A stretch of DNA of 64,000 bases from a virus (taxonomy: Duplodnaviria > Heunggongvirae > Uroviricota > Caudoviricetes). Position 1 is the stretch's first letter, and each line of letters begins with the position of its first letter. The DNA lies in IMG/VR virus record IMGVR_UViG_3300009008_000004, positions 18,004 to 82,003 of that record; one strand, 5' to 3'. Below the pieces are notes generated by a model. The model was not told the origin of the DNA and searched no databases. It saw nothing but the letters and a program-made list of their open reading frames with translations. A program made the translations under genes and the position numbers. Below are positions 3,375 to 47,163 of the stretch, in pieces.

Positions 3375-4982
3375 ATGAAGACGTTCGAGACCCCACCGGA
3401 ACGGTGCCCCTTCTGCGATAGCATTGCGCTGATGCGCAGTAAAGGCGGGGATCGTGTGCTCTACTCCTGTCGGACAGAGGTCCTGCTCGTGGGAGGGAGG
3501 ATGTCCGAGGAGCGCATGAAGGATGGTGCGGACCGCGCCAAGGAGTGTGCCTTGCGAGAACTGCAGGAGACAAAAAAGCAGCTCGCTGCGCAGGCAACCA
3601 ACGGCGGCAACGCCCAATCCCAGGAACTCGAGGATATACTCGTTTGGATGGGCTGGAAGGACAGGGAAAGCCTCAGCGAATTTGAGGGTCGGTTCACGGA
3701 AGAATGGGGGGAGCTCCGACGTGCGTATGATCGCGAGCAGGAAATCCTTGAGAGATTCTCCATCCCCAAGAAGCTGTCGTTCGCAGAGTTTATTGAGCGT
3801 ACATGCGCTGATGAAAAGCTCAGCCGGGAGACCTTGGAAAAGATGCTCCGCGACGATCGGGCACTGCGCAAGAAATTTGGTGCCAGGGAGGGCGAGAGTA
3901 CGCATACTTTCGTCCAACGCCTCTACACGGAAGCGAACAGCCCCCTCGCCGAAGAAATGGTCTCCCTGGAGGAGGACAATTCGCGGTTAATCCAGGACGC
4001 CGCGAAAGCCCACACCGATGCCCAGAGGCTTGAGGACGAGCTCAAGATAGCTCAGGCAACTATCGATGCGCTGATACAGGGCAACAAGACAATTCGAAAG
4101 CAATTCGGTGCCCGCGAGAACGAAGAGATGTTCCACTTTGTCCAGCGCCTCCACGAGGGCTACACTGCCTACGAACGGGATGATACTAAGTTTCTTTTCG
4201 ACGTCGGGAAGGAGATGTCGGAGCTCCTGCAGGAATACGACAAGCTGGAAGGGGAAACCCTCCGGGAATGGATTGCCCGCCTGCACGCGGGATACCGCGG
4301 GGAGAAGGAAAAAGACTCCACGGACGACACTGTCCACCTGAAGCGCATTACGGTCCACACCACCGCGTACAAGGAAGAGGTACTCTACATCCCCGCCGAC
4401 CTACCGGACTGCCGTGCCTTTGTACACGAACGGTCCAAAGAGGGGCTCCCCGTCTGCTGTAGCACCGCTAAGGAAGGACAGAACTGCGTCTACTTCGGGG
4501 GTTTGATAGGAGATACGCAGGTCCTCTGCGACCAAACGCCTCGCAAGGAAAAAGAGAACACGCGAACCCTGCGTGTACACCGCTCAGACGATGCGGACGA
4601 AGATACACTCTTCGCACCAACCTGCCCGAGCAAGCCTGCTGGTGGGCGTTGCGCTGAACCACGAGGAGTTGAATGTACCTACTTTCGTGGGGCCGCTACC
4701 TCCCCCACGGAGAGTTCGTGGACTACTGCTGAGTGTGCATGCCCAACCGAGGAAGTAAAGCAGCCGCGAAGTATCACTATCCCAACAGCCTACTTGGATG
4801 GCGTCGGGGGAGCCAAAGAGCTGCGAGCCAGCCCACTAACGGCATGCCCCGATGGTACCCGCAGCTTCTGTATGCGGGGAGAGGACAAATGCCCGCACCT
4901 GGGGCCGTGGGAGAAGGATGCCGAAGGCCGCGCAACATGCCACTACCACGAGGACCTCGATGAGGTGCGTGGTCGAGGGTAG
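3375..4982 (+). CDS. large Zn-ribbon/coiled-coil protein with internal repeats and Cys-rich C-terminus
   Basis: N-terminal CPFCDS...CRTE; repeated (R/K)KFGARExE...FVQRL(Y/H) units; many Cys in last 150 aa; RBS GGAGGA. Confidence 0.6.
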   Translation: MKTFETPPERCPFCDSIALMRSKGGDRVLYSCRTEVLLVGGRMSEERMKDGADRAKECALRELQETKKQLAAQATNGGNAQSQELEDILVWMGWKDRESLSEFEGRFTEEWGELRRAYDREQEILERFSIPKKLSFAEFIERTCADEKLSRETLEKMLRDDRALRKKFGAREGESTHTFVQRLYTEANSPLAEEMVSLEEDNSRLIQDAAKAHTDAQRLEDELKIAQATIDALIQGNKTIRKQFGARENEEMFHFVQRLHEGYTAYERDDTKFLFDVGKEMSELLQEYDKLEGETLREWIARLHAGYRGEKEKDSTDDTVHLKRITVHTTAYKEEVLYIPADLPDCRAFVHERSKEGLPVCCSTAKEGQNCVYFGGLIGDTQVLCDQTPRKEKENTRTLRVHRSDDADEDTLFAPTCPSKPAGGRCAEPRGVECTYFRGAATSPTESSWTTAECACPTEEVKQPRSITIPTAYLDGVGGAKELRASPLTACPDGTRSFCMRGEDKCPHLGPWEKDAEGRATCHYHEDLDEVRGRG

Positions 4983-11851: not shown

Positions 11852-12475
11852 ATGAGCTCAAAGAGATTAGCAAAGCTCACCAAAAACAAAAAGCCGCAGG
11901 AAGAGCAGGCACCCCCACTCTATAGTGGCTCGGGACCCCCACCCTATAGTGACTCGGGAGCACGCTATTTCCTCTACCACTCTTATGGGGGATGGACAGG
12001 AAAAATTGGTGTCGATGGCGGAACCTATGGTTCGCTAGAGTTCGGCAAAGCCTGGGTACTTAGCTTCGACGGTCCAAGAGACAAATATATCCTCCGCGCT
12101 ATGGAACACATGGATAACAGTAAACACTACACACTAACCCTTTGGGCAATTTGGAACTACGACCCATATACCCGAAAATTCGTGTGTGATCATACAGACT
12201 ACAAAAAAGTCTTAGGTCTCCAGGAAGAAACCGTAGGGCTCGATGAGGGCGGTACTACGGATATCCATACTGCGAGTAAGGAGCAGCTCCGGGAAGAACT
12301 CAGCCGGCTACGGCAAGGTATTCTTCTTAGAGATTCCCACCGATACGTAACCGACGTCGGACTTTACGATAAAAGCGAGATGATCGCACACTGCGCATTC
12401 TGCGATCGTGAGCAAGGACAGGAGTGTAGAAAGCACTGCCCCACTAAAACCCACCCCGCCCACAACGAAAAGTGA
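11852..12475 (+). CDS. hypothetical protein, paralog A (SKRLAKLTK N-terminus, C-terminal Cys cluster)
   Basis: N-terminal SKRLAKLTKNKK and C-terminal HCAFC...C...HC; paralogous to next gene. Confidence 0.5.
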   Translation: MSSKRLAKLTKNKKPQEEQAPPLYSGSGPPPYSDSGARYFLYHSYGGWTGKIGVDGGTYGSLEFGKAWVLSFDGPRDKYILRAMEHMDNSKHYTLTLWAIWNYDPYTRKFVCDHTDYKKVLGLQEETVGLDEGGTTDIHTASKEQLREELSRLRQGILLRDSHRYVTDVGLYDKSEMIAHCAFCDREQGQECRKHCPTKTHPAHNEK

Positions 12476-12485
12476 GGTACTGCCT

Positions 12486-12992
12486 ATGGGCTCAAAAAGA
12501 CTCGCCAAACTTACAGAAAAAAAGAGGGAGGAGCTCCTCTCCCCGTCCCCGGATACCACATTCTCCCTCTTCTACAAAGGATCGGGGTGGGCATACAAAG
12601 TTGATAGTGTCGGCGGAACCTACAGCGAACCAACCTTCGCAAACCGGCTTATCTTCGAGCACACTCAGGCTGCGCCGATCCAGAGGGCTTTTAGGGAAAT
12701 ACAAACCCATGCGCCGGACCTAGCGAAAAACCTCTGCCTGTACGCCATTCAAAAGGGAAAGGAGACGTCGGCCACGCTTGTTTGTACAGCAGCAGATGAG
12801 ATGTTTGTCGTCGGCCAGCACCCCGAGATTAGACGCCTCCGACGAGCACTTGCAGCACGGGATAAAGACCGCTGGTTCTTTGACAGCTCTGGTATCATTC
12901 GCTGTAGTTACTGCCGGCTACCTGAGATGGACGGTTGTGATATTACCTGCCCTACAAGGGCGTACCCCATTATTTCGAAGGAGAACACCTAA
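12486..12992 (+). CDS. hypothetical protein, paralog B
   Basis: MGSKRLAKLTEKK...; C-terminal CSYC...C...C; tandem duplicate of 11852-12475. Confidence 0.5.
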   Translation: MGSKRLAKLTEKKREELLSPSPDTTFSLFYKGSGWAYKVDSVGGTYSEPTFANRLIFEHTQAAPIQRAFREIQTHAPDLAKNLCLYAIQKGKETSATLVCTAADEMFVVGQHPEIRRLRRALAARDKDRWFFDSSGIIRCSYCRLPEMDGCDITCPTRAYPIISKENT

Positions 12993-13357
12993 TGGATTAC
13001 CGACACTCTTTCTGCCTGTGTACTGGGTGGGATGTGGAAACCAATGAAGACGGGCGATGCCTCAAATGTGGGGCAACAGCGGTTGGAGAGGAGATAGAAG
13101 AGCTGGCCCACCAACGCCGCAAGCGGAAGTTGGAGGTTGGGCAGCTGAGACAACAACTGCTGACGAAGGATGATGAGATACTCCGCCGGGATCGGTGGAT
13201 CGACTTGGCAATAGCCTCTGTCGTCGTAAAGGCTGCGTCGGGCGAACACGCAAACCGCCTGCTCAAGACGTTCGCTAAGGAGAGTGGTCATGCCCCGCGA
13301 GCAGCAGACGAGGCAGCAGTAAAGGAGGGGAAGTATGCCAAACGTAAAATGTCCTGA
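12992..13357 (+). CDS. Zn-ribbon/coiled-coil protein
   Basis: CLC...CLKCG then helical region; ATGA-type junction. Confidence 0.45.
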   Translation: MDYRHSFCLCTGWDVETNEDGRCLKCGATAVGEEIEELAHQRRKRKLEVGQLRQQLLTKDDEILRRDRWIDLAIASVVVKAASGEHANRLLKTFAKESGHAPRAADEAAVKEGKYAKRKMS

Positions 13358-13700
13358 GTGCGGGAGCCCCGGAAAGGTAATCCCTATCGGGGCGGACGAT
13401 ACTGTCCAGGGCAATGGTACCTGGGAAATAACCCGATTTAGCTGCGGGCGGCAGGAAGCACGAGATGCCGAAGGGAAGCTATCCCACGACTCGCCTATGA
13501 TGAGGATCCAGCGAGGGTATGGTTGGCTGCAGGAATGTCGGGAGCGGAAGGCCATGATAACCGCCCGCGCCCTCCAAATCGTCTGCGGGGAACACAGTAT
13601 TTGCACCGGGGAAGATAGCGGGCTACTCTTAAAGGGATTGCTCAAGCAAGCTCAACAGGAGTTAGCCAATGCGAATGGGTGGACTATTGAAGACGACTAA
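13335..13700 (+). CDS. Zn-ribbon protein
   Basis: KCPECGSPG...FSCGRQ. Confidence 0.45.
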   Translation: MPNVKCPECGSPGKVIPIGADDTVQGNGTWEITRFSCGRQEARDAEGKLSHDSPMMRIQRGYGWLQECRERKAMITARALQIVCGEHSICTGEDSGLLLKGLLKQAQQELANANGWTIEDD

Positions 13701-13878
13701 CTGGCCTGGCTACGAGCCACACACAGAAACGAACACGCAGTGGGCATGGCGAGTTAGCAAGGATACAGCCGCCAAGCTCACCATCGGTACTATCTGCTTC
13801 ACAGTACTCGCTGCACTCTACACCTGCGATGCTGCGAAAGTTGTGCACCGACAAATCAAGAACCGCCTCCGCGGGTAA
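13669..13878 (+). CDS. small membrane protein
   Basis: LTIGTICFTVLAALYT hydrophobic helix; start uncertain. Confidence 0.35.
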   Translation: MRMGGLLKTTNWPGYEPHTETNTQWAWRVSKDTAAKLTIGTICFTVLAALYTCDAAKVVHRQIKNRLRG

Positions 13879-17045: not shown

Positions 17046-17570
17046 ATGCCAAAAGAATACACGGCGCTCCTCCAGATACCGGAGCCTTTACACACATGCC
17101 CCAATTGTGGGGCCCACCCCTTCGAGAGCTTCATGCGCGGATCAGTCCAACGCGCAAAGAGGAGTTGGTTTACCCCCTGGAAGGAGAGACCTTACTGCTC
17201 GATTATCTGCGATATGTGCAAGGAAATAGTGGGGCATGAGTACCCCTTTCTGGGGGAGATAGAGCTAGAAAAGCCCTACCGATATAACAGGGATGTCATC
17301 GCTCCTAAGTACACCTGCGAGGGAGCGCAGCAGAACGTGCTGGCCAGCCTGCAGCAAATAGAGGAGCAGGTAGATGCGCTCGCGGAGTTTATTATGCCCA
17401 AAGAACCCAAAGTAACCGAGTTCCCGGAAAGTGAGGAGCTCGAACAATTTCTGCGAGGAGAAGAAGAGCCTCCCCCGCCGAAACCACCCAAGAAGAAGTC
17501 GAACGTGAAGAGAAGGACCCGTAAGTCCCGCCGGTGGGAACAGATCCTCAAGAAACCACAAGAGGACTAA
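17046..17570 (+). CDS. Zn-ribbon protein with Lys/Arg-rich C-terminus
   Basis: CPNCGAHP...CDMCKE; C-terminal PPPKPPKKKSNVKRRTRKSRR. Confidence 0.5.
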   Translation: MPKEYTALLQIPEPLHTCPNCGAHPFESFMRGSVQRAKRSWFTPWKERPYCSIICDMCKEIVGHEYPFLGEIELEKPYRYNRDVIAPKYTCEGAQQNVLASLQQIEEQVDALAEFIMPKEPKVTEFPESEELEQFLRGEEEPPPPKPPKKKSNVKRRTRKSRRWEQILKKPQED

Positions 17571-17617: not shown

Positions 17618-19381
17618 ATGGCACTGAAAGACGAGCAATTCATCCAACAGCTGGTCGTCCAGCTGGTAGGACAACAAGCCGAGGAGGGCAAGACAGGAAT
17701 GCACGATGCTGAAAGATGGGAGCAGCTGAACCATGCTCTGCAGGAAGCCAAGGACATCATTACCCAACAAGACGAGATGCTCCGCGAGATGAACGAGCCG
17801 CCTAACTCGTTTGGGACCATCCTCTCAATCGAAGAGCCCGAGCCACCCACGGTGGAAAACCTTCTTCGGAAGAAGGGCCGAGTCAAAGAAGGACGGCCGC
17901 ACGAAGGCCGGGGCATCTTGGTCAAGGATGCCTGGGAAGTCACAGACGAAGAGGGAAAGGCCACAGGAGTTTTCCGCATCTACGCCCAGTTCACCGAGAC
18001 CCCAACGCAGCACCAGAACTACGACCTCGACGATGTCCTCCTCATTGGGGGCGCTGGTGGGACAGTTATCCTCCATACCGGCGAGAAGATCCTGCGTGTA
18101 CCCTTCCCCTATTGGTTGGAGGAAGGTGTCGGGGTGGGCGACGAAGTCCTGCTGAACGTTATGACCCTGGCAATCATCGGAAAGGCAGGAGATCCCATCG
18201 GTGCCGGCGAGATCGGCAGCGTTCGGAATATCATCTCCGACCAACTCTGCGAAGTCGACTACGGTGGCACTACCAGAGTTGTGTTCCAGGGCAAGCATAC
18301 AGAAGAGATCAAGCTCGGGGACCGCGTCGTACTCAACCCCGGCGGAGTCGCTGTCTCCACCAACCTCGGGCGAGGGGAAGACCGGTGGAACCTCGAGACT
18401 GCCCAGGATATCACCTGGGGAGATATCGGTGGGCTCGAGAATGCAAAACGGATGATGCGGGAAGCTGTTGAGTACCCAATCCTCCACCAGGAAATCTATA
18501 CCCGCTACAACAAGAAACCCATCAAGGGTGTCCTTCTCTATGGCCCTCCAGGATGTGGGAAGACTATGCTTGGGAAAGCTGCTGCAACCGCAGTTGCTAA
18601 CCTGCACGGCGGGACGAAGGGTGGTTTCCTCTACATCAAGGGGCCTGAGCTGCTCAACAAGTGGGTTGGTGAGACGGAGGCACAGATTCGCTCCATCTTC
18701 GCAGTTGCCCGTCGGTATCACGAGGAGAATGGCATTCCGGCCCTCATCTTCATAGACGAGGCAGATGCGATCCTCTCCAAACGCGGGTCTGGGAGATCCT
18801 CCGACATGGAGAAGACCATGGTCCCGATGTTCTTGGCTGAGATGGATGGTCTCGACAAGTCGTCTGCACTTGTCGTACTCGCCACCAACAGGTCAGATAA
18901 GTTGGACTCTGCTGTGGTGCGGGATGGTCGTGTGGATCGTAAGATCAAGATTACCCGGCCCACCCCCGAGAGCACCGCGGAGATATTTGCGCTCAACCTT
19001 GTCGACCTTCCGTTTGCGAACGGTGAGGCTGTCGAAGACCTCGCGGAATTCGCGGCACAACAGCTGTTTGACCCCAAGCGAGTGCTGTACCAGATGCAGG
19101 CCAAATCGGGCAACATCCACGAAATTCGGATGGAGCATGCGATCAACGGCGGTATGATTGTGAGTGCTGTCGATCAGGCTACCTCACGGGCAATCGCTCG
19201 GGAGATGGAGGCCAAGAAGGAATCTGGGCTCGCCAAAGTAGACCTGGCTGCAGCAATCAATGATCTGTATCTCCAGAACGCCGATCTGGATCACCACGAA
19301 CTTCTCGTTGAGGTGGCAGACAACCTCGAAGAGGAGATCGCGTCCGTGCGTCCTATGATGCGCGGTAGGAGAGCTGCATGA
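17618..19381 (+). CDS. AAA+ ATPase, PAN/ARC (proteasome-associated ATPase)-like architecture
   Basis: N-terminal coiled coil, beta-rich middle, then classical AAA: GPPGCGKTM Walker A, ALIFIDEADAIL Walker B, second region of homology; RBS GAAGGGAG. Confidence 0.8.
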   Translation: MALKDEQFIQQLVVQLVGQQAEEGKTGMHDAERWEQLNHALQEAKDIITQQDEMLREMNEPPNSFGTILSIEEPEPPTVENLLRKKGRVKEGRPHEGRGILVKDAWEVTDEEGKATGVFRIYAQFTETPTQHQNYDLDDVLLIGGAGGTVILHTGEKILRVPFPYWLEEGVGVGDEVLLNVMTLAIIGKAGDPIGAGEIGSVRNIISDQLCEVDYGGTTRVVFQGKHTEEIKLGDRVVLNPGGVAVSTNLGRGEDRWNLETAQDITWGDIGGLENAKRMMREAVEYPILHQEIYTRYNKKPIKGVLLYGPPGCGKTMLGKAAATAVANLHGGTKGGFLYIKGPELLNKWVGETEAQIRSIFAVARRYHEENGIPALIFIDEADAILSKRGSGRSSDMEKTMVPMFLAEMDGLDKSSALVVLATNRSDKLDSAVVRDGRVDRKIKITRPTPESTAEIFALNLVDLPFANGEAVEDLAEFAAQQLFDPKRVLYQMQAKSGNIHEIRMEHAINGGMIVSAVDQATSRAIAREMEAKKESGLAKVDLAAAINDLYLQNADLDHHELLVEVADNLEEEIASVRPMMRGRRAA

Positions 19382-19584
19382 ACAACAACAACGAGGGAGG
19401 CCAGGGCCGCATGAGACCCCAGACCGGTGGCGGGGGTGGCAGTCTTGACCTCGAACTTCAGGAGCTGCTGGAGACCGGCAACATTCTTGATACGCTTGAT
19501 GCGGCTATCGAGGAGTCCAGCAGAGCAGCGCAACAGGCGCGGGAGTACGAAGAAGAGAGAGATTGGTGCACGCCCTGCGAGTAG
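19378..19584 (+). CDS. small hypothetical protein
   Basis: ATGA overlap; Gly-rich then acidic. Confidence 0.35.
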   Translation: MNNNNEGGQGRMRPQTGGGGGSLDLELQELLETGNILDTLDAAIEESSRAAQQAREYEEERDWCTPCE

Positions 19585-19982
19585 AGCACATCCTCCAACT
19601 ACTCCTGCTCTCCTGCAGCACAGCTGCGATTGCCACAACGATCACCAAGGCAAGCATCTTCAAACCATTGCGGGTACGCCTCCATGGCGCGGGCGAGACT
19701 TCCACATCCATGCACTGGGTATGGAAGCTCTTCGCCTGCCCGTATTGTATGGTCCACTGGGTCGCCTTGGGGATGACACTTCTCTTCTTCCCACGCCCAA
19801 TTGAATTTTGGTGGCCAGCTGATATGGTAGTTAGTTGGTTCGCCCAGGTATATATCGCATCGCGCTTGATTGGTCGGTTACTTGAAGTCTATAAGTTCCC
19901 ACCGGATGACGCGGAGCCGCGGTACACAATGGAGGAGGCAGTGGCGTTCATCAAAGAACTCCATAAGAAGAAGACCGAATAG
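19563..19982 (+). CDS. integral membrane protein (CPYC motif)
   Basis: several hydrophobic segments, WKLFACPYCMVHW. Confidence 0.5.
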   Translation: MVHALRVEHILQLLLLSCSTAAIATTITKASIFKPLRVRLHGAGETSTSMHWVWKLFACPYCMVHWVALGMTLLFFPRPIEFWWPADMVVSWFAQVYIASRLIGRLLEVYKFPPDDAEPRYTMEEAVAFIKELHKKKTE

Positions 19983-19986
19983 GAAT

Positions 19987-20016
19987 GGGGGTCGGTGCCG
20001 GCCGACCCCATTTCCT
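19987..20016 (+). terminator. rho-independent terminator (GGGGGTCGG-tgcc-GGCCGACCCCC + ATTTCCTT)
   Basis: 9-10 bp GC stem immediately after stop 19982. Confidence 0.5.
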
Positions 20017-20032
20017 TAGCTTAGGAGTAGGA

Positions 20033-20530
20033 ATGGCTCTCTATAATGCGCAGATATGCAGCATCTGCAAAGGATCGGGAATTATCCACGGGAAACTCTG
20101 TAACATTTGCACCGGTAAGGGGATTGTCGGTGGAGACCCCGCAGGACACCCAGCTCCCCCACTAACTATGGGAGGGGAAGCACTGGAGTACGTGGAACCA
20201 AAGAACATGGGGTACGGCCGCTTCCGGATGAAGAAGCAGCGTCCGGTAAAGCCGCGCCGCCGCTTTGATGTCTTTCCCCCGGCCACAATAAAGACCCACC
20301 AGCTACGCACTCGGAAGGGGAGATTTCAGGCAATTAGGGATTTAGCACGGGGGCAAGAAGAGCGGCGGCTGAACAAGATTATTGGAAGACGTTACGCGAA
20401 TACACGGGTGTGCGTCTCTTGTGAAGAGGTGATGCGATATAACGAAAACCTCGATATCTTCTTCTGTGCGGCCTGCAAGAGCATGATCCCTTGCCGAAGC
20501 CAAGCAACGGTAGCCTGGTTCACAGAGTAA
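20033..20530 (+). CDS. DnaJ-type CxxCxGxG zinc-finger protein
   Basis: CSICKGSGIIHGKLCNICTGKGIV repeats; C-terminal CVSCEE...CAAC. Confidence 0.5.
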   Translation: MALYNAQICSICKGSGIIHGKLCNICTGKGIVGGDPAGHPAPPLTMGGEALEYVEPKNMGYGRFRMKKQRPVKPRRRFDVFPPATIKTHQLRTRKGRFQAIRDLARGQEERRLNKIIGRRYANTRVCVSCEEVMRYNENLDIFFCAACKSMIPCRSQATVAWFTE

Positions 20531-31079: not shown

Positions 31080-32942
31080 ATGCTCGCAATTCTTGTTTTG
31101 ATCACCATCGTAGTACTGTGCAGCATTGTCGTACTGTGGAAGTTCCGCTTCACCAAGAAGGAGTACACCGGGGAGACCACCATGGGTGGTTACGAGAAGT
31201 ACAAGACGGTGAAGCACCATCTGCCGCGCAAACTGCAGATCCTCGGAACTGCGCTTGCTATCATCCTATGGGCAGCAACATTTCTCGGAACGACTCTGTA
31301 CGTCGCACCGAAGACGGGGTACCTCGAGTACTCAAAGACATGGGGTGGTGGCTCCATGGGACCGGGGCAGATCGTTGCCTACGACGGAGAGAACGGCCCG
31401 CAAGCAGAAATTCTGCCGCCCGGACCCCACATCCTACCCCCGTGGCAATTCGAGGTCATCGAACGCTCCGACTTCGTAGTCCCTCCGGGCCAGATCGCAG
31501 AGCTGTCGACCAAGGACGGCGAACCACTATCCCCGGGTATGCGCTATGCACCTGAGTGGCAAGAGCTATCTGCCTTCCTCGATGCAGTAAACTTCCTCTC
31601 CTCTGGGAAAGGCTACAAAGGCGACCAAGTCACAATCCTCAAACCTGGTAACTGGAAGTTCAACCAGAACCTGTATGTCGCCGAACTCGCGAATGTTACC
31701 AACGTCCAGGTTGGGCACGTAGCAGTCGTCAAGGCAAACTACGGAGATGTCCCCACGCCGAAGACGATCAAGACCGCGAATATCATGGAAGTCGAGGTCC
31801 CGCTAACCAAGGAAGAGTTGGACATGGCCTACAAGGAGGCCATCGAGCTGGAGACCCAGCGGCAATTGGCTACAGGCATCCCCGCGGACCAGGTCAATGT
31901 AAAGCGGGAAGACGTAAAGGTCAAGAAGTCCAAAGTCATGCTCAAGGAAGTGGAGCAAGAAGTGGACGATCCCCTGGTAGACGTCGGCGAGCGTGGGATC
32001 TGGAGGAAGCCGCTGATCCCCGGAGAGTACTTCATGCACACGAAGGCGCATGAATTCAAGGATATTTTGACCATGAAGGTTCGCGTTGCCTACAGTCCTG
32101 AGGACAAGAAAGAACAGGACAACGTAGCGTTGGACCCAATCATCGTAAGGTCGAAAGATGGCTTTGAGTTCCCCGTCGACGTGCGCGTGGTCTACCATAT
32201 CGAACCCTCCGATGCACCTTGGGTGGTGGCAACCATCGGCGATGACGACTACGTGCTGGACAAAGTCATGACTCCTGCGGTTCGGTCAATCTTCCGAAAC
32301 CTCATGGGACGCTCGAAAGCACTCGACTTCGTAGCCGACCGCGAACTCAAGCAGCGGGAAGCAAAGTCACTGATTGCGAAAAAGTGCGCAGTGCACGGCG
32401 TCACTGTCGATGAAGTGCTGATCGGCCGGGTTGGTGATGATGCTACGCTGGGGGCGCTGATGAAAACGCAGAAGGACCGCGAGATTGCAGTCCAGCAGCA
32501 AGTGACCCTTGGGGTGCAGCAGAAGGCCGCTGAGCAGCAGAAAGAGCTCAGTAAGACCCAACAGGAGGCCGAGGAGGAAAAGTCCCTGGCAAAAGCCGCC
32601 TACGAGGTCCAGAGGGCACAACAGCGCAAGCTCCAGGCCCAAGAAGACGCGGATGCGGAGGCAATCAAGGTGAAGGTCGCAGCAGAGGCTGAAGCTGAGA
32701 AGATCCGAACGATCGCTCGCGCAGAAGCGGATGGCTACACAATGAAGGTCACCGCACTTGGGCGAGACACAGTCCGGACTATCGAGGCCCTGCGCATCGT
32801 TGGGGACGCCAATCTACGGATCACGCCAAACGTCATGGTATCTGGTGGAACCGAGGGAGTCGTCAGCGCACTCGCAGGAACACTCCTCAACAACTTCAAT
32901 GTCGCTGGGAAGGGCACAGGAATGCCCATACCCACCGAGTAG
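31080..32942 (+). CDS. SPFH/band-7 (flotillin-like) membrane protein
   Basis: N-terminal TM helices, SPFH-like core (FEFPVDVRVVYHIEP), long Ala/Glu/Gln-rich flotillin-type coiled coil. Confidence 0.65.
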   Translation: MLAILVLITIVVLCSIVVLWKFRFTKKEYTGETTMGGYEKYKTVKHHLPRKLQILGTALAIILWAATFLGTTLYVAPKTGYLEYSKTWGGGSMGPGQIVAYDGENGPQAEILPPGPHILPPWQFEVIERSDFVVPPGQIAELSTKDGEPLSPGMRYAPEWQELSAFLDAVNFLSSGKGYKGDQVTILKPGNWKFNQNLYVAELANVTNVQVGHVAVVKANYGDVPTPKTIKTANIMEVEVPLTKEELDMAYKEAIELETQRQLATGIPADQVNVKREDVKVKKSKVMLKEVEQEVDDPLVDVGERGIWRKPLIPGEYFMHTKAHEFKDILTMKVRVAYSPEDKKEQDNVALDPIIVRSKDGFEFPVDVRVVYHIEPSDAPWVVATIGDDDYVLDKVMTPAVRSIFRNLMGRSKALDFVADRELKQREAKSLIAKKCAVHGVTVDEVLIGRVGDDATLGALMKTQKDREIAVQQQVTLGVQQKAAEQQKELSKTQQEAEEEKSLAKAAYEVQRAQQRKLQAQEDADAEAIKVKVAAEAEAEKIRTIARAEADGYTMKVTALGRDTVRTIEALRIVGDANLRITPNVMVSGGTEGVVSALAGTLLNNFNVAGKGTGMPIPTE

Positions 32943-33969: not shown

Positions 33970-34054
33970 ATCCCCTGCAGTATCGGGAATAAGAGAAGTC
34001 CAATAGGCCCACTAACGGGCAAAGTTCTGTAAACACAGAGAGGTGAAGTACGTC

Positions 34055-34279
34055 ATGACAGACAAGAAGACTATCAAGGTTACCGTGGCGAAGCTGGGTG
34101 CTGACGATGTGATCGTCGAGGTCCCGGATGGATCGGAAGTTTGCAAGGTAGCGGGGCAGTCCGGCCTCGATACCCGTGGTTGCGTGTTCCAGCTCGACGG
34201 CGAGACTGTCGAAGGGACCGAATTGGTTGGTGAGGGCCAGATCCTCCAACTCGTCCCCCGCGTCGAGGGAGGGGAATAA
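34055..34279 (+). CDS. ubiquitin-like beta-grasp protein (ThiS/MoaD-like) with C-terminal GG-E
   Basis: 74 aa, KVTVAKLG...VEVPDGSEV...GQILQLVPRVEGGE: size, alternation and penultimate Gly-Gly typical of Ubl precursors. Confidence 0.6.
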   Translation: MTDKKTIKVTVAKLGADDVIVEVPDGSEVCKVAGQSGLDTRGCVFQLDGETVEGTELVGEGQILQLVPRVEGGE

Positions 34280-34303
34280 GAACGTGCGGGTGGGCTGCTC
34301 AAA

Positions 34304-34320
34304 ATATCTCGATTAGATAA
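34304..34320. promoter_or_regulatory. quasi-palindromic operator-like site ATATCTCGATTAGATAA
   Basis: reverse complement of the 11234-11250 site; just upstream of E2-like gene RBS. Confidence 0.45.
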
Positions 34321-34351
34321 TTGGGCAGCCTGCCCAACAAGGAGGAACCAG

Positions 34352-35818
34352 GTGGCATACCAGTACAAAACCAACTACAAAGAGCTGGATGAAGCTCTCA
34401 CGACAGAGGCGGAAGTACTTGGGGCGTATATCATCCCCAGATTCGTTGACGTAAACGGGGCAGCCGACGTACACCACAAGCAAGCAGGGATCCCAAAAGC
34501 ACCTGCGGTATTCCTTGCTATCCAGCAGTATGACGTAGGAAATCCCATCTCAGAGGCGCGATTGCGTGTGCGGGGCGAAGACCTCACACTCACGAAGCCC
34601 ATACGCCCAACAAAGACGCCGGGGGTACCGATCGTTGTTAACAACGGCAAAAAACATGGTACCATAACCATCGGCTCGGTCTACGAGAACACGGTCTACC
34701 TCAACTTCAACCTGCCGAACTTTATCAACGCCAAGCGCTACACCAGAACTGCGCGGGGGAAAACGGGCAACACCGATGGCAGCTTCTTACCCAAACTATT
34801 CGCCCAGCACCTCCGTCCAGCATTCCAACTCGCGGCCAAGTTCGACGAAGGCTACAGCTACGCCGACGAAAAGAGAGTCCACGTCCAGAATGTGCTAAAG
34901 ACTCAAAAGACGGTCAAGAAAGAGCTTGAGCGCAAAATCTCCGTCCAAAGGAGGTCTATCGCCAACCACATCCAGGCAATCGAACAAGCAACCTCTAGGC
35001 TGGGAGAGATGCAACAGACGCTTGCCGGCCTCGAGGCCGACCAGGTGAAGCTTGCGAAAAAGGGGGAGACTCGCTTCCGCATCTTCAACAGCTTGTGGGG
35101 TAATGGCATTCACGATCTACGGATCGAGCCCACGCACATCATATTCCTCACAGCCCCGATCTTCTCCGAAGGGCTACCTTTCGGGCGCTTCTGGGTAACT
35201 ATCCCGCGGGGCGCAGACCGTCAGTACTCCAATATCACGATCAAGGCAGAAAACAACACCTACAACATAGGCGGATACGTACACCCACACATCCACGAGA
35301 ATGGGAGTATTTGCTGGGGCACAGCCGGCACGGTTATTGCGCAATTCCGCGGGCGGGGACAAGAGATCGAATGTATCCCCATTATCCTGGAGTACCTCCG
35401 GACCTACCATCATGACCACCAGTACCGCGCCATTGAGTACTGGGACGAGAAATTCGGTAAAAAGGGGGATAAAAAGCGAACTGACCGTGGTTCTCGCTGG
35501 CGTGAGTGTTACAGTAAGGTTACAGATCCGTACGAGTGTGCAGGATGCTTTGCCCCGGAATGCCCTTACCGGGACGGTGCCGAAGATCGTTGCTACAGGC
35601 AGCGGAACAAGAAGCAGGAGTACATTCGGTGTATGCAGTGTAAGGCCTGCAATAACTGGAAACACGCCAAAGCTGCCTGCCGGAAAAACCATCAGCAGGA
35701 CAGGAAGGATTGCGTGGGCTGCCCAGTAACATCATGTACCTACGCCGAGCCTGAGAAAGTGGCAAAAGCCCGCAAACCCAGACGGAAAACGGCTAAAGGG
35801 AGGACTAAGGCCGCATGA
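34352..35818 (+). CDS. E2 (UBC)-like ubiquitin-conjugating domain protein with N-terminal extension and Cys-rich C-terminus
   Basis: GTG start 7 nt after AAGGAGG; GGYVHPHIHENGSICWGTAG matches E2 HPN-x-x-x-x-G-x-I-C active-site signature; C-terminal 100 aa has 14 Cys (Zn-binding-like). Confidence 0.6.
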   Translation: MAYQYKTNYKELDEALTTEAEVLGAYIIPRFVDVNGAADVHHKQAGIPKAPAVFLAIQQYDVGNPISEARLRVRGEDLTLTKPIRPTKTPGVPIVVNNGKKHGTITIGSVYENTVYLNFNLPNFINAKRYTRTARGKTGNTDGSFLPKLFAQHLRPAFQLAAKFDEGYSYADEKRVHVQNVLKTQKTVKKELERKISVQRRSIANHIQAIEQATSRLGEMQQTLAGLEADQVKLAKKGETRFRIFNSLWGNGIHDLRIEPTHIIFLTAPIFSEGLPFGRFWVTIPRGADRQYSNITIKAENNTYNIGGYVHPHIHENGSICWGTAGTVIAQFRGRGQEIECIPIILEYLRTYHHDHQYRAIEYWDEKFGKKGDKKRTDRGSRWRECYSKVTDPYECAGCFAPECPYRDGAEDRCYRQRNKKQEYIRCMQCKACNNWKHAKAACRKNHQQDRKDCVGCPVTSCTYAEPEKVAKARKPRRKTAKGRTKAA

Positions 35819-36753
35819 AAATCAAAGTAGAACCAACAATTTTCCTTCTGCCAGAAGTCATCACGAAGATCGACATCTGGTGTAAGAAGGCCAAAGGGGA
35901 GGTCTCTGGCCTCGGCCTCATCGACATCGATGAAGATGGGGACATCTTTGTAACTGATGTCTACCTACTTGAGCAAAAGTCATCCAGTGGTAATACGGAC
36001 CTCGACCAGGAGGCTGTTGGTAACCTGATGACCGAACTCAGAAAGGAAGGCATCTCAATGTCCAAGCTCCGCTTCTGGTGGCATTCACATGGGAATGGTG
36101 GAGTATTTTGGTCGGGAACCGATGACAAGACCATCGATATTCTCGGCAAAGGCGGCTTTATGGTCTCCATGGTCACCAACAAGAAGCGGGAGAAGAAGTT
36201 CCGGATCGGGATGCAGAAACCGCTGAAACTGGACCTGGATGACGTTGGGTGGAGCCTCGCCTACTTCCCAGACGAAGAGTTTGAGAAGGAGTGCGAAAAG
36301 GAATTCGATGAGAAGGTCAAGGAGGTCACGACGATCACTACCTTCAAGGGTTCCGGAAACTACGGGCACAACCGCTCCGGCCGGGGCCGCTTCTACCATA
36401 ATGGGCGGTGGCACGACTCCTGGCCCGGTGGCAATGGGGGTTCCCGGACCGATTCTCCAGGAGGTGGGCTTCATCAGCCCGTCCCTTTTCAGGGAGAGGA
36501 CACAAGCCCCGGGACAAACAACCCACTCGAAATGCTCCCGTCGTGGGGAGAAATCCCCGGGACCGACGCAAGAAGTAGAGTCAGCGATCTCGTTGGTCAA
36601 GAGATTGAAGAGGTCGATACTCTCTGGCTTATTCTCAACGAAGCGGACTACACGGTAGCCGGGCTTGACCAACTCCGTAAGGCTAACAAGATCGAAACTG
36701 CGGAGCACAACCAAGCACGCGCCCAACTGAAGGAGCTCGGACTCGATGACTGA
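35815..36753 (+). CDS. JAB/MPN (JAMM) metallopeptidase
   Basis: E...WWHSHGNGGVFWSGTD = HxHx7Sx2D JAMM motif; ATGA coupling to E2-like gene. Confidence 0.8.
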   Translation: MKIKVEPTIFLLPEVITKIDIWCKKAKGEVSGLGLIDIDEDGDIFVTDVYLLEQKSSSGNTDLDQEAVGNLMTELRKEGISMSKLRFWWHSHGNGGVFWSGTDDKTIDILGKGGFMVSMVTNKKREKKFRIGMQKPLKLDLDDVGWSLAYFPDEEFEKECEKEFDEKVKEVTTITTFKGSGNYGHNRSGRGRFYHNGRWHDSWPGGNGGSRTDSPGGGLHQPVPFQGEDTSPGTNNPLEMLPSWGEIPGTDARSRVSDLVGQEIEEVDTLWLILNEADYTVAGLDQLRKANKIETAEHNQARAQLKELGLDD

Positions 36754-37411
36754 TATCGACAGGAATGCTATGTATCATCGGCAGCTCGATATCCTCGATC
36801 CGGAGAAGGCTGCCAAACTCAACGTCACTATTATCGGGGCCGGCGCTATCGGCTCCTTCACCGCACTCTCCCTGGCAAAGATCGGCGTAACCAACATCAC
36901 GGTCTACGACGATGACACGGTAGAGCTGCACAACATCCCGAACCAGTGGTACAGACTATCGGATGTCGGGAAGAAGAAGGTCATTGCCCTCCGCGAGATT
37001 ATCGAGCAGTTTACCGGGGTCAAGATTACCGCGATCCCGGAAAAGTTCGATAAGCAGAAGGCAAAAGGATTCGTCATCAGCGGAGTCGACTCCATGGATG
37101 CTCGCATTGGCATCTGGCAGAACCTCAAGATGCAGTTTCCACAGAGGTATCTGGATGCCCGCATGGGAGCGGAGGTGGGGGAGATACACATGGTGAACCC
37201 GGCCGACTTCGACAACGCCGAACAGTACGAGGAGAAGCACCTATTTCCCTCAACTGAGGCTGCTCCAGGAGCATGTACTGCCCGCAGCACAATGTACTGC
37301 GCCAGCGGGCTCGCTGCGATCATTGCGGCAAAGGTCAGCAACTTCATCAACCAGAGGCCCGACTCGGACCTGATCGTGGACTTCCGAAATATGAAGGTGT
37401 TGCCTGTTTGA
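36746..37411 (+). CDS. E1-like ThiF/MoeB-family adenylyltransferase
   Basis: VTIIGAGAIGS nucleotide-binding loop, YDDDTVELHNIPNQ E1 signature, 8-nt overlap with JAB gene. Confidence 0.8.
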   Translation: MTDIDRNAMYHRQLDILDPEKAAKLNVTIIGAGAIGSFTALSLAKIGVTNITVYDDDTVELHNIPNQWYRLSDVGKKKVIALREIIEQFTGVKITAIPEKFDKQKAKGFVISGVDSMDARIGIWQNLKMQFPQRYLDARMGAEVGEIHMVNPADFDNAEQYEEKHLFPSTEAAPGACTARSTMYCASGLAAIIAAKVSNFINQRPDSDLIVDFRNMKVLPV

Positions 37412-42796: not shown

Positions 42797-43090
42797 ATGC
42801 AACAGTTGCTTCCTCAAATCCGGCAGTTTGCCGCAGACAGGACAAGGGAGGCTGCGAGCGCTCTAAATGCTCTTGGCCGTGTCGTCAAAGTTCTCCAGGT
42901 GCTCGACTCCGAATACCAGGAGACGTACCAAACCCTTACGGTACGAGTCGATTCCGGGAAGTACGAGGGGCAAGTCCTGCCCGTCGTACAGATCCAGCTG
43001 GATGGTAAAGGGGTTACCATTTGGGCTACCCACAACGAAAACCCCAAGAAATTTCGCGTCACAGGCGAATTGGAGGTCACACAAGCATGA
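42797..43090 (+). CDS. hypothetical protein
   Basis: ATG 8 nt after GGAGG; 97 aa. Confidence 0.5.
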   Translation: MQQLLPQIRQFAADRTREAASALNALGRVVKVLQVLDSEYQETYQTLTVRVDSGKYEGQVLPVVQIQLDGKGVTIWATHNENPKKFRVTGELEVTQA

Positions 43091-44016
43091 GCAAGAAAAC
43101 CGTACACCTGGTCCTGGAGGATATCCGGTTGGATTCCGATGGTATGTCCAATTGCCGATCGGCTATGGAGGGTATCGAGGAGCTGGCACAGGACATCGTA
43201 GATGAGGGATGCCTGCTCAACCCCATTGGGGTATGGCAGCCCCCGGGAAAGGACTACTACGTCTTGAACTATGGCTACCGTAGGCTCCATGCGCTGAAGT
43301 GGCTCAAAGAACACCGACCCAAAGATTTCATCTCCCTTGACTTTGAGGAGGCTGGGAAGATCCCATGTGCCGCATACGGTGGGGATTTGAACGCCGCATT
43401 GATCAGGAACCTCTCTGAGAACCTGAAGCGGAAGCGGGTAAACCCGGCAGATCTGGTTACCCGGGTCGGGTACCTGCACGAAGTCCGGGGGATGACGGAG
43501 ACACTAATCGCGAAGACCATTGGGATTGCCCAGTCCCAAGTCTCAGGTATGCTGGGAGTCCACCTTGGGTGCTCCAAGGCAGTTATTGGTGCCCTCCGGC
43601 AGAAGCTCATCAACCTGTCCAACGCCAAGAAGTTCAGCAAGCTCCCACACGAGCAGCAGGATGAATTGCTGGAGAAGCTGCTTGAGCAGGACCCTGAGCA
43701 GGCAAAGAAGATCAAGAAGCTTTTGGCCAAGAAGACCGAGGCCTCCGTGCGTCCGGGTGTAAAGACTCTGAAGTCTACTCTTGGGCAGGTAGCTGCACGT
43801 AAGGAAGAGCGGGACAAGGAGTACCGCGATGGAGTCATTGCCGGCCTCAAGTTTGCATTGGGTATCATTGATAAGGTCGAATGGCTGTTTGCTCCGGCAC
43901 ACGCAGTTCCGGAAGATGCAGCTCCTCAGGCCCCGACGAGACTCGTTCGTGCGATGAAACCGAAGAAGAAGTTCGCTGGGAAAGCGCAAGAAAAGGAGAC
44001 CACCAAACCAAAGTGA
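43087..44016 (+). CDS. ParB/Sulfiredoxin-fold (ParB N-terminal domain) protein
   Basis: NPIGVWQ...YYVLNYGYRRLHALKWL = ParB GxxRxxA box; HTH-like middle; Lys-rich C-terminus; ATGA overlap. Confidence 0.6.
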   Translation: MSKKTVHLVLEDIRLDSDGMSNCRSAMEGIEELAQDIVDEGCLLNPIGVWQPPGKDYYVLNYGYRRLHALKWLKEHRPKDFISLDFEEAGKIPCAAYGGDLNAALIRNLSENLKRKRVNPADLVTRVGYLHEVRGMTETLIAKTIGIAQSQVSGMLGVHLGCSKAVIGALRQKLINLSNAKKFSKLPHEQQDELLEKLLEQDPEQAKKIKKLLAKKTEASVRPGVKTLKSTLGQVAARKEERDKEYRDGVIAGLKFALGIIDKVEWLFAPAHAVPEDAAPQAPTRLVRAMKPKKKFAGKAQEKETTKPK

Positions 44017-44031
44017 GGTGTTGATTAGACA

Positions 44032-45639
44032 ATGTCCAAGCTAGAAACCCTGATCCGGGCTGCGTACCCGGTGATCTACGTTGAGACCCCCGAAGAGGAG
44101 CGGTTGTTCCATGAACTTTCACGGATCACCACCGAAACGGGGCTGGATTTATTCACTTGGGATATTTCCGCTGGCTTCCGCCAGTATAAGGACGACGAGT
44201 TCAAGGACATCGATCCTGAAGCGGTAGAGCCACGCGAGGCTATCCCGCAGTATTTCATCAACAAAGATGACGTGAATGGGATTCTGGTACTCCCCGACAT
44301 CCACCGCCTGTTCCATGATGCCGCCTGCCTACGCTTGCTGCGCAACGCGCTCCAGCTGCGGCACCAGGGTGGCATCAAGATCATCTTGATGTGCTCCCCT
44401 ATCATTGACCTTCCCCTGGAGCTCCGCCGGCAGGTAGCTACTGTCGACTTCCCCCTCCCCTCCCGGGAGGAAATCAAGGAATTCCTCGAGGAGCAGCGCA
44501 ACGACGTCCCCAAGACCCTCTTCCCTGTGAAGAAGGAGATGGCGGAGGTGGTTGATAGCTGCCGTGGGCTGACGATGATGGAGATTGAGAATGTTCTGGC
44601 CAACTGCCTGGTCGAGGATTCTCCTCTGAAACCCAGCCGGGTTATCGGGGAGAAGAAAGAGATTCTCCGTGGGGCCAAGTCCCTGGAGTACATCGAATCT
44701 CCCTTGGAACTGAACAAGGATGTCGGGGGTCTCGAGAACGTGATTGCCTGGCTCGAGCTTCGCAAGCGTGCCTTCTCTGAGGATGCTGTGAAGTTCGGGA
44801 TTCCTGCGCCCAAAGGCTTGCTCCTGGTGGGTTTGCCTGGAACAGGGAAAAGCTTGGTCGCCAAAGCAGTTGGTGGTTCTTGGAAGTTCCCTCTGATCCG
44901 CTTCAATATGGGCGCTGCCTTCTCGAAGTGGCAGGGGGAATCCGAGGCGGAGATCCGGAATGCCTGGAACACCGCAGAGGCCTGCGCACCATGCCTCTTG
45001 GTAGTGGATGAAATTGATAAAGCGACCGGCGGTCTGGGCGGCGACTCAGACAATGGGACCGGGAACCGAATTCTTGGAGACCTGCTGACGAAGATGCAGG
45101 AGAACACCAAGGGCGTGGTCGTTATTGCTACCTGTAATGACGTACAGGCGATGCACCCAGCATTGCTTCGTAAAGGCCGCTTTGACGAGATTATCTTCGT
45201 GGACTTGCCCGGCCCCAAGGCCATCGAGCAGATCCTCGATATCCACTTGACGGCAAAGAAGCAGCCAACGTTGGATTCGTTCACCAAGAAAGAACGGAAA
45301 AGCATCGTCGAGCACATGCAGGGCATGACCGGCGCGGAGATTGAGCAGGCAGTTGTAGATGCCATGTACCTGGCATTTGCTGCTGAGCGGGCCCTCCTTC
45401 CTGAGGACCTCGTAGCTGCCGCTACTAACACCCGACCGTATTGCGTCCTGAAAGAGGAGGAAGTCAAATGGATGCGGAAGTGGGCAGAAAACAGGGCGGT
45501 GCCAGCATCCGCCGAAGTCTTGGACTTGACGAAAGCCCTGGACTTTCGCAAGCGCTTGGGCCAAGAACTCCCAGCGGATTCACCAATGTCTACGGTAAAG
45601 AAGCTGCGGCTAAAACGTCCCTCGCGCTCTGGCTCGTAG
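44032..45639 (+). CDS. AAA+ ATPase (classical AAA clade) with N-terminal domain
   Basis: LLLVGLPGTGKSLVAKAV Walker A, CLLVVDEIDKA Walker B, ATCNDVQAMHPALLRKGRFDEII sensor/Arg-finger region. Confidence 0.8.
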   Translation: MSKLETLIRAAYPVIYVETPEEERLFHELSRITTETGLDLFTWDISAGFRQYKDDEFKDIDPEAVEPREAIPQYFINKDDVNGILVLPDIHRLFHDAACLRLLRNALQLRHQGGIKIILMCSPIIDLPLELRRQVATVDFPLPSREEIKEFLEEQRNDVPKTLFPVKKEMAEVVDSCRGLTMMEIENVLANCLVEDSPLKPSRVIGEKKEILRGAKSLEYIESPLELNKDVGGLENVIAWLELRKRAFSEDAVKFGIPAPKGLLLVGLPGTGKSLVAKAVGGSWKFPLIRFNMGAAFSKWQGESEAEIRNAWNTAEACAPCLLVVDEIDKATGGLGGDSDNGTGNRILGDLLTKMQENTKGVVVIATCNDVQAMHPALLRKGRFDEIIFVDLPGPKAIEQILDIHLTAKKQPTLDSFTKKERKSIVEHMQGMTGAEIEQAVVDAMYLAFAAERALLPEDLVAAATNTRPYCVLKEEEVKWMRKWAENRAVPASAEVLDLTKALDFRKRLGQELPADSPMSTVKKLRLKRPSRSGS

Positions 45640-46554: not shown

Positions 46555-47163
46555 ATGCGCCACAACGCACCGATGCTCCATATAGAGGGCATTGTGTACC
46601 CAACGCAGGCGAACGGCCCAGGAAAGCGCATCCTTGTTGCTGTCCGTGGGTGTTCTCTGCAATGCCCCGGGTGTGTAAACAAACATCTATGGGATCGTAC
46701 CCTCGGCGGAAGATACGTAGACCCAGCGAAGTTCGTGGATGAGTTGCTGAAGACAACGGGACTCTCTCGGGAGGATGCCACTAATGTCGGGCTTACAATC
46801 TCCGGGGCAGAGCCACTAGACCAAGCAGCCGCTCTCTTCATCCTACTTGTCCAAGCAGCCCTGACCTTCAGGGATATCATCGTCTTCTCCGGTTACACCA
46901 TCGAGGAGATCGAGGAAGACGCTCTGAAGAGCTCTTGCCTGGCATGGCTGGACGCAATTATCACAAATAGATATTTGCGGGAGCAGCACGCTACACAGGG
47001 CCTCAAAGGGTCTGCCAATCAGGAAATCATCGTCAACCCCTACCGGAACAAGCTCACTCTGCAAGAGTTGGAGGATTTCGAGCATGTAGTTGAGATCCAC
47101 CCAATCGGGGTGATAACCGGCTTCCCATCAAAGGAAGAGGAGGAAGCATGTCAGCATTCATAG
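46555..47163 (+). CDS. radical-SAM activating-enzyme-like protein (NrdG/QueE-like CxxxCxxC)
   Basis: YPTQANGPGKRILVAVRGCSLQCPGCVN: CxxxCxxC cluster in NrdG/QueE-type context; RBS AGGAGG. Confidence 0.55.
   Translation: MRHNAPMLHIEGIVYPTQANGPGKRILVAVRGCSLQCPGCVNKHLWDRTLGGRYVDPAKFVDELLKTTGLSREDATNVGLTISGAEPLDQAAALFILLVQAALTFRDIIVFSGYTIEEIEEDALKSSCLAWLDAIITNRYLREQHATQGLKGSANQEIIVNPYRNKLTLQELEDFEHVVEIHPIGVITGFPSKEEEEACQHS

Follow-up and report, generated by a model that had tools for sequence, protein, structure and literature searches.

What would a tailed phage do with a proteasome-associated AAA+ unfoldase, and what would such a motor recognise? The question is raised by a 64-kb stretch (hereafter the window, in whose coordinates all positions are given) of the viral record IMGVR_UViG_3300009008_000004, positions 18,004 to 82,003, which looks like part of a large tailed phage with a genome of roughly 183 kb and in which one open reading frame (ORF), here called AAA1, encodes an ATPase of this kind. 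The bacterial tag protein Pup and its unfoldase Mpa are regarded as a possession of Actinomycetota and a few other phyla, tied to the 20S proteasome and to ligation by Dop and PafA. A preliminary description made from the DNA sequence had seen AAA1 as a PAN/ARC-like or Cdc48-type unfoldase that might act, together with a second ATPase and a ubiquitin-like (Ubl) conjugation cassette, in tagging host defence proteins for unfolding or for degradation by host proteases. We report that AAA1 is Mpa/ARC-like, and that its likely cognate tag, to judge from sequence features, is a small Pup-like protein that the preliminary description had overlooked, PupL, encoded with a DUF1360-type membrane protein directly behind AAA1. 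The features of this unit are as follows.

17618..19381, plus strand: AAA1, an Mpa/ARC-like AAA+ unfoldase of 587 amino acids (aa), assigned by TIGR03689, Foldseek and intact motifs.
17705..17794, plus strand: N-terminal coiled-coil helix of AAA1, aa 30-59, from the AlphaFold2 (AF2) helix.
17804..18373, plus strand: beta-rich inter-domain of AAA1, aa 63-252, an OB region with an inserted small SH3-like barrel, from the AF2 strands.
18410..19027, plus strand: single classical AAA module of AAA1 (PF00004, aa 305-446, E=6e-34).
19378..19584, plus strand: PupL, 68 aa, whose ATG overlaps the AAA1 stop (ATGA) and has AGGAG seven bases upstream.
19563..19982, plus strand: DUF1360-type membrane protein with three transmembrane (TM) segments and a CPYC motif (PF07098), its start overlapping the end of PupL.
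19988..20009, plus strand: GC-rich hairpin with a nine-pair stem holding 7 GC pairs, six bases after the DUF1360 stop.

For comparison we assembled 80 viral loci encoding relatives of AAA1, all of whose ORFs were clustered, and 80 cellular Mpa loci, which yielded 6,146 six-frame ORFs. Pfam families were sought in most window ORFs above about 110 aa.

Public gene calls start AAA1 at ATG 17618, and an in-frame GTG upstream at 17534 is an alternative. The ORF and the motifs first read in it are real, and its length, given earlier as 588 aa, is 587 aa. The nucleotide-binding motifs are intact (Walker A LLYGPPGCGKTMLGK, Walker B LIFIDEADAILSK and sensor-1 ATNR), the pore loop reads NKWVGE and the arginine fingers VVRDGRVDRK. 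Presumably in common with Mpa are the GPPGCGKT P-loop and the RGSGxSSDxExT pore-2 region. An AF2 model built from a 41-sequence alignment (mean pLDDT 85.5) has helices at aa 2-21 and 30-59, a beta-rich part at aa 63-252, the AAA module and a helical/beta C-terminal part. Together with the PF00004 match, it bears out the proposed order of coiled coil, beta-rich middle and single classical AAA module, and structure prediction of the N-terminus, suggested earlier as a check, found both the coiled coil and an OB region. The insert between the coiled coil and the first OB strand gave a weak match to PsaE/MIB-type SH3-like barrels. We regard helix 30-59 as a putative docking site for a Pup-like helix.

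Family profiles, fold comparison and an N-terminal profile each placed AAA1 with Mpa/ARC. The best NCBIfam profile was TIGR03689 (pup_AAA; E=7.8e-94, 315.2 bits), which aligned in one stretch, aa 31-558 on profile positions 14-486 of 512, while the PAN (187.7 bits), Cdc48 (189 bits) and FtsH (138 bits) profiles matched the AAA core only. In a Foldseek search of the AF2 model against the PDB, the best 30 matches were all Mpa chains (E down to 5.9e-36), aligned over about 460-480 columns and nearly the whole length of those chains that contain both OB domains, followed by proteasomal Rpt subunits at E about 1e-25. A profile of the family's aa 1-255 alone, which excludes the AAA core, had as its top PDB matches the Mpa 1-234 fragment 3m9b (E=2.9e-5) and then full-length Mpa (E=2e-4), and it also matched the ARC N-domain 2wfw (E=1.1e-3); its match to the Mpa OB structure 3fp9 (E=0.32) was not significant. 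On 3m9b_A the profile aligned to residues 69-125, the end of the Mpa coiled coil and the PP junction. Only the family profile succeeded here, since a single-sequence phmmer search of aa 1-260 against the PDB returned nothing significant. The nearest cellular relatives, sought in one genome per prokaryotic species, were canonical Mpa/ARC proteins at 34-40% identity from Actinomycetota, Nitrospirota, Poribacteria, Verrucomicrobiota and Armatimonadota, which are phyla that carry Pup or UBact.

These results support an assignment of AAA1 as PAN/ARC-type, and specifically as Mpa/ARC-like. Of the two families first suggested, the PAN/ARC-like one stood, on the family profile, the N-terminal profile and the fold, and the Cdc48-type one did not: AAA1 has a single AAA module, and Cdc48 chains lead its PDB sequence list because both of their modules, D1 and D2, are counted, which doubles their scores. 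The best PDB sequence match in a single stretch was Mpa (5kwa, aa 171-559). PAN itself was rejected, as its profile covers aa 199-478, within the AAA core, at 187.7 bits against a cut-off of 500, and AAA1 lacks HbYX. The placement that would have spoken against a link to tag recognition, an unrelated AAA family without coiled coil or OB fold, is thus not what family profile, N-terminal profile and fold returned. PADLOC gave AAA1 and the second ATPase only generic IetA/TRIP13 matches within the AAA module, and a known defence system was rejected for both. AAA1 resembles Mpa/ARC (TIGR03689; PDB 3M9D, 5KZF, 7PX9) in its coiled coil, OB region, single AAA module and helical/beta C-terminal part and in having a Pup-type gene nearby; it differs in lacking a GQYL tail and dop, pafA or prcAB genes, and in being phage-encoded at widely varied GC content. 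Its closest long relative, in locus L110 (10001-12598, protein P0003; 68% identity), is 865 aa long because it is split by an intein that contains an HNH endonuclease.

PupL, which is translationally coupled to AAA1, consists of a disordered Lys/Gly-rich N-terminus, a Pup-type helix GNILDTLDAAIEE and a C-terminal Cys motif, CTPCE. Across the family the amphipathic helix follows the pattern [IV]P-x-x-D-x-[IL]L-x-x-LD-x-A[IL] and the C-terminus is CxC, as in the closest relative, L110, which ends CVC. Read directly, the hydrophobic offsets 0, 1, 4, 7 and 8 are I, L, L, A, I in the PupL of the window and L, L, I, V, L in Pup. A 15-member PupL profile searched against 177,635 PDB sequences ranked Pup first and second (3m9d_G, E=0.0031; 7px9_G, E=0.0064), with an alignment that spans the N-terminus and the helix TEETDDLLDEIDDVLEE, and a 29-member profile again ranked Pup first in the PDB (E=0.0047). 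When the family was aligned with 17 true Pups by hhalign, the match (84.6% probability, P=6.8e-6) fell on Pup residues 29-50, which we take to be the helix that folds onto the Mpa coiled coil (PDB 3M9D). A phage-only PupL hidden Markov model (HMM) searched against the cellular-locus ORFs at E<=0.1 gave 17 matches, 16 of them genuine Pup (recognised by a ...QKGGQ/E end) or UBact (...RQRTGQ/E end), and the seventeenth was a Pup-like ORF of a gammaproteobacterial metagenome-assembled genome (MAG). The set contains 48 true positives, which gives this retrieval a hypergeometric p of about 2e-34.

PupL thus shares with Pup and UBact a length of about 60-90 aa, a disordered Gly/Lys-rich N-terminus (which in the window, L018, L022 and L110 contains a run of GGGGG like that of M. 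tuberculosis Pup), an amphipathic acidic helix with equal hydrophobic spacing and distance from the N-terminus, a gene that adjoins an Mpa-type ATPase and profile-level similarity in both directions. It differs in its C-terminus, which is CxC or CxCGxxxC with none of the GGQ/GGE or RTGQ/E ends. The FVRxYVQKGGQ half of Pup, which binds Dop/PafA and carries the ligated residue, is likewise absent from the PupL family. We conclude that PupL appears to keep the motor-engaging half of Pup, with the ligation half replaced by a Cys motif.

A census of the PupL family by sequence found 22 proteins with a word-indexed search and 12, at E<=0.001, when 1.84 billion representatives were searched exhaustively with a profile. 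Its members are so short and divergent that sequence does not suffice to count them, and gene context is needed. Among the viral loci encoding AAA1 relatives, the only widely conserved neighbour family is a protein of about 125 aa directly downstream, and nearly every locus that has it also has a small ORF between it and the ATPase. In HMM searches PupL and DUF1360 occurred together in 20 viral loci besides the window's own contigs, and DUF1360 occurred in 25; in all, a DUF1360 gene comes straight after PupL in about 25 viral loci. Ten or so further viral loci have a small ORF that ends CxCGxxxCxIGP and no DUF1360 gene, and an ATPase with an adjoining Pup-like gene, with or without DUF1360, was found in about 35 viral loci. 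The GC content of the carrier loci ranges from 27 to 73% overall and from 27 to 63% for the DUF1360 type. In the window phage's two closest relatives the ATPase is likewise followed at once by a small gene and then by one of DUF1360 size, and in one of the two, L110, we read the Pup-like sequence. The trio is also found in two MAGs, on a contig labelled Kerfeldbacteria and in a genome of gammaproteobacterial type. In the gammaproteobacterial MAG (locus L111 = L085, 5756-6281), a 513-kb contig carries the ATPase, a PupL ending RGCFCFR and DUF1360 among cellular-looking genes (PspA about 1.6 kb upstream, an Na/H exchanger and glycosyltransferases), and the PupL and DUF1360 genes are missing from the public annotation.

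The window's DUF1360 protein is joined to its orthologues by a family HMM (E=7e-40), and orthologues pass PF07098 (L010, 36.9 bits, E=3.9e-9; L018, 31.5 bits, E=1.8e-7). All 20 aligned partners have a CxxC where the second TM segment begins. The CPYC of the window protein is predicted to lie at the cytoplasmic face, because the preceding loop is rich in Lys and Arg and the positive-inside rule then applies. The Cys content of PupL varies with this partner: before DUF1360 it is mostly two Cys, as CxC or CC, with four in some members, and without DUF1360 the motif is the longer CxCGxxxCxIGP with three or more. This second type, CxCGxxxCx(I/Y)GP(F/M), is never followed by DUF1360 (L020, L025-L027, L029, L037, L041, L045, L046 and L057), and L029 has two tandem copies of it. 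The hairpin at 19988-20009 possibly ends the three-gene unit; its T-run is weak, and it is a putative terminator. PADLOC has no model for the trio and gave no matches to PupL or DUF1360, and a search of the available literature gave nothing relevant on phage Pup-like proteins, a phage proteasome-associated ATPase, DUF1360 or the trio.

Mpa docks on the 20S proteasome by a C-terminal GQYL motif. The GQYL end is present in 48 of the 80 cellular AAA1 homologues, and about ten more end G[TH][YF]L. AAA1 ends ...VRPMMRGRRAA, its family consensus has neither HbYX/GQYL nor a Tyr at the penultimate position, and none of the viral ATPases with a Pup-like gene behind them ends GQYL. Families of Pup ligase, proteasome, ClpP and Lon were absent from the window ORFs scanned and from the conserved neighbours of the related loci, and searches with the Dop, PrcA and PrcB sequences of the cellular loci gave no match in the window or the viral loci. 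The other conserved neighbours of the viral ATPases belong to ordinary replication and packaging: HNH, terminase, DnaB, SNF2, UvrD, DUF5131 and Ro60.

With a little more belief than doubt, we read AAA1 as a proteasome-independent phage unfoldase of the Mpa/ARC branch that has its own Pup-like partner and serves unfolding, extraction or remodelling and not proteolysis. By analogy with Pup and Mpa, the PupL helix would dock on the N-terminal coiled coil of AAA1 and the disordered Gly/Lys-rich N-terminus would enter the pore. PupL is probably not ligated to substrates in the way of Pup, because its end is not GGQ/GGE and the searches turned up no Dop/PafA ligase. The Cys pair of PupL and the CxxC of DUF1360 might share one metal ion in the manner of the CD4/CD8-Lck zinc clasp, in which a CxC and a CxxC from two chains share one Zn; the pairing of a terminal CxC with a partner CxxC is the same, the proteins are unrelated and metal binding by the trio is hypothetical, so that this complementarity backs metal sharing circumstantially. 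Such a clasp would anchor PupL, as adaptor, at the inner membrane and with it the unfoldase; alternatively, the DUF1360 membrane protein may itself be the thing that is pulled. In loci without DUF1360, the PupL motif of three or more Cys may suffice by itself. Since AAA1 has no GQYL tail, we propose that the ATP-driven motor would unfold, extract or remodel its substrates and would not serve proteolysis. If the tether is right, the arrangement would resemble FtsH, by analogy only, as a classical-clade AAA ring at the cytoplasmic face of the membrane, and would differ from it in having no protease domain and an anchor supplied in trans by two small proteins.

Several observations weigh against this reading. 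The similarity of PupL to Pup amounts to one amphipathic acidic helix of about 20 residues and a low-complexity N-terminus; the Pfam Pup model PF05639 matched no single PupL member, even at E<=10, and a narrow mycobacterial Pup HMM searched against 16,314 viral ORFs placed PupL ORFs at ranks 3, 8 and 12, none of them individually significant. The PupL of the window ends in CTPCE and not in the usual CxC, and the window's DUF1360 protein scores 18.3 bits (E=0.0023) against PF07098, below the cut-off of 21 bits. AAA1 itself, at 315.2 bits, falls short of the TIGR03689 equivalog cut-off of 504.75, its coiled coil is shorter than that of Mpa and its OB region contains an extra barrel, so that the geometry of binding may differ. 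The searched 64 kb are part of a roughly 183-kb genome, and a ligase or protease could lie elsewhere in it. The zinc clasp is drawn solely from motif complementarity and a positive-inside-rule topology, and every interaction proposed within the trio is read from sequence and gene order.

In one rival explanation PupL resembles Pup by convergence or coincidence, AAA1 acts alone as a general unfoldase or chaperone (for example in assembly or takeover), and PupL and DUF1360 are unrelated membrane or metal-binding accessories. In its favour, the similarity is short and compositionally biased, the Pfam model is silent towards single members, and the library-wide profile search recovered only 12 members, a sign of how weak the sequence signal is. 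Yet the genes are strictly adjacent, with start/stop overlap, across 27-73% GC; Pup is the top PDB match for two independent alignments; the retrieval of Pup/UBact is highly specific; and the hydrophobic spacing equals the LL..I..VL of Pup. We therefore consider coincidence unlikely.

AAA1 might instead unfold host or phage proteins tagged by the Ubl cassette, possibly alongside a PupL adaptor. The cassette is real, as the preliminary description had recognised, and its four genes can be read from their motifs and a ThiF match:

34043..37411, plus strand: Ubl-E2-JAB-E1 cassette.
34043-34279: Ubl, 78 aa, ending RVEGGE.
34352-35818: E2-like protein HPHIHENGSICWG, 488 aa.
35815-36753: JAB protein HSHGNGGVFWSGTD.
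36746-37411: E1 (ThiF, E=4.5e-21).

We take this gene order to be that of the Bil defence systems; one Bil paper, when searched, did not mention AAA proteins, the proteasome or phage-encoded systems. Since the Ubl ends GGE, one residue would need to be removed. The E2-like protein is unusually long; its HPH..NG..C core occupies aa 230-370 and its C-terminal tail is rich in Cys. Just upstream of the cassette lies a 620-aa SPFH/Band 7 protein (31080-32942, E=2.5e-11) of the membrane-associated scaffold type.

Cassette and AAA1 lie 14.7 kb apart in the window. In one other locus, L018 (IMGVR_UViG_3300025005_000002, 178 kb), they form a co-directional cluster of AAA, PupL, DUF1360, E2, E2, JAB, E1 and Ubl, with tandem E2 genes at 12236-13105 and 13140-13772 and a third E2 paralogue at 3708-4634, about 6 kb upstream of the ATPase. 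Given the rarity of both modules, their adjacency is improbable as a product of chance and favours a functional connection, as does the presence of both in the genome of the window. Against it, a cassette lies within 10 kb of the ATPase in only one of the 80 viral AAA loci, L018, and in none of the other 79. The converse scan found 17 viral loci with a small E1; E2-like and JAB genes can be recognised in most of these and a Ubl in about half, and the ATPase was within 10 kb only on L018's own contig; the ATPase and E1 contig lists share no other member, and an E2-based scan of viral contigs recovered L018's own contig alone. The coiled coil of the Mpa type, moreover, binds a helix and not a beta-grasp fold (PDB 3M9D), and the window phage and L018 may hold both modules by common descent. 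The link between ATPase and cassette, as suggested by the preliminary description, is therefore weak and at most facultative, and may reflect the shared ancestry of the two phages; that the cassette supplies the substrates of AAA1 seems doubtful.

A third explanation, that AAA1 feeds a host protease (20S proteasome, ClpP or HslV) and that the unit is degradative, is quite improbable. The nearest relatives of AAA1 are proteasomal ATPases, and eight other viral loci encode Mpa-like ATPases ending GQYL or GMYL. AAA1, however, has no GQYL/HbYX end, nor has any viral ATPase that precedes a Pup-like gene; AAA1 shows no evident IGF-type loop; and the GC contents point to hosts far beyond the phyla with Pup and a proteasome. 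The suggested degradation by host proteases is thus unsupported, AAA1 having no docking tail of either kind; the accompanying remark that neither ATPase has an obvious protease domain was confirmed by scans with Pfam and NCBIfam family profiles, which found none in AAA1 or in the second ATPase. The separate viral Mpa-like ATPases that end GQYL or GMYL (L058, L060, L063-L067, L073 and L081) have no Pup-like or DUF1360 neighbour and could dock on the host 20S proteasome. Finally, PupL could be a decoy that blocks the host Mpa/proteasome pathway, as its retention of the Mpa-binding half of Pup without the ligation half would allow, but every PupL is encoded together with an ATPase of its own, Pup systems are improbable in most of the implied hosts (GC 27-63% for the DUF1360 type) and a gammaproteobacterial MAG is among the carriers, which leaves very little room for this idea.

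The second ATPase that had been proposed as a partner in a tag-plus-unfoldase logic, AAA2, is present with the motifs first read in it:

44032..45639, plus strand: AAA2, 535 aa, a tandem AAA protein with a degenerate D1 and an active D2 (PHROG 8638).

Its motifs are GLPGTGKSLV, VVDEIDKA and RKGRFDEII, and PF00004 matches aa 263-391 (E=7e-32). The match to PHROG 8638 covers aa 1-495 on profile positions 22-541 of 568 (E=1.1e-109). Among GenBank phages, 139 records match AAA2 and 57 have full-length homologues, which include Corndog-like mycobacteriophages, Pseudomonas phage SM1 and Rhizobium phage L338C; the family members Mycobacterium phage Blessica gp97, SM1 gp26 and L338C gp50 are 28-32% identical to AAA2 over more than 90% of its length. 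In the PDB, the resemblance to solved AAA modules is limited to aa 221-450. The N-terminal 205 aa align with the protein's own AAA half (hhalign 92%, P=6e-7, 181 columns), which makes AAA2 a tandem AAA protein with a degenerate first module, in which VIYVETPEEERLF occupies the P-loop position. AAA2 lacks a coiled coil, an OB region, a matched Cdc48-type N domain and a Pup-like neighbour, and an AF2 model from the single sequence (pLDDT 32.6) gave no usable fold. AAA2 is a typical representative of PHROG 8638, which is common in phages, and does not belong to the AAA1 unit, and for its tandem modules, its family and its want of a coiled coil and OB region we reject the proposed pairing of the two ATPases. 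A ParB-HTH protein (43021-44016) comes before it, and a 4Fe-4S/radical-SAM-like protein (46555-47163; Fer4_12, E=1.7e-22) lies about 0.9 kb behind it. In the cultured phages L338C, SM1 and HJ05 the AAA2 homologue is followed by a weakly conserved protein of about 200 aa, with no match to the downstream ORF of the window.

The phage origin of the window is backed by many IMG/VR relatives of AAA1 and by a tail-sheath match (PHROG 279, E=1e-12) in the following protein:

50321-54523, minus strand: 1400-aa protein with a C-terminal tail-sheath domain (PHROG 279, Pfam TssC).

The sheath/TssC match is confined to the last 200 aa or so of this protein, and no family matches the large N-terminal remainder. 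An identical AAA1 protein occurs on contigs of about 183 kb. Megablast of 20 kb of the window against GenBank phages returned nothing, tblastn of AAA1 against the same phages gave no record covering more than 53% of the protein, and most of the window ORFs scanned have no Pfam family. A tRNA scan for clues to the host found none, and a promoter scan gave sites not in excess of those in shuffled sequence. The ORFs on either side of the trio (17046-17570 and 19985-20530) have many CxxC pairs and the appearance of zinc ribbons, and are kept in near-identical contigs only.

What would be new here is a Pup-Mpa recognition pair detached from ligation and the proteasome, borne by phages and joined to a membrane protein. 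A motor and the motor-binding half of its tag would form a compact phage module across hosts of very different GC content. A more far-reaching version, which we regard as a tentative and rather unlikely proposal, is that phages carry a conjugation-free offshoot of Pup-Mpa in which PupL is a degron or adaptor clasped by its Cys residues to a membrane protein (or to other targets where DUF1360 is absent) and served by a proteasome-free motor, and that in the window phage and L018 this offshoot is also wired to a Bil-type Ubl cassette, remodelling host or viral proteins at the membrane; were that so, one virus would join Pup-like and ubiquitin-like tagging logics. If the reading of AAA1 and PupL as motor and partner is true, the Pup helix and the Mpa coiled coil would be a portable recognition pair, the widespread DUF1360 family would gain a testable partner, and PupL, as a small genetically encoded handle for an AAA+ unfoldase, could be a useful tool. 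It would also suggest a new viral way of applying unfolding force at the membrane.

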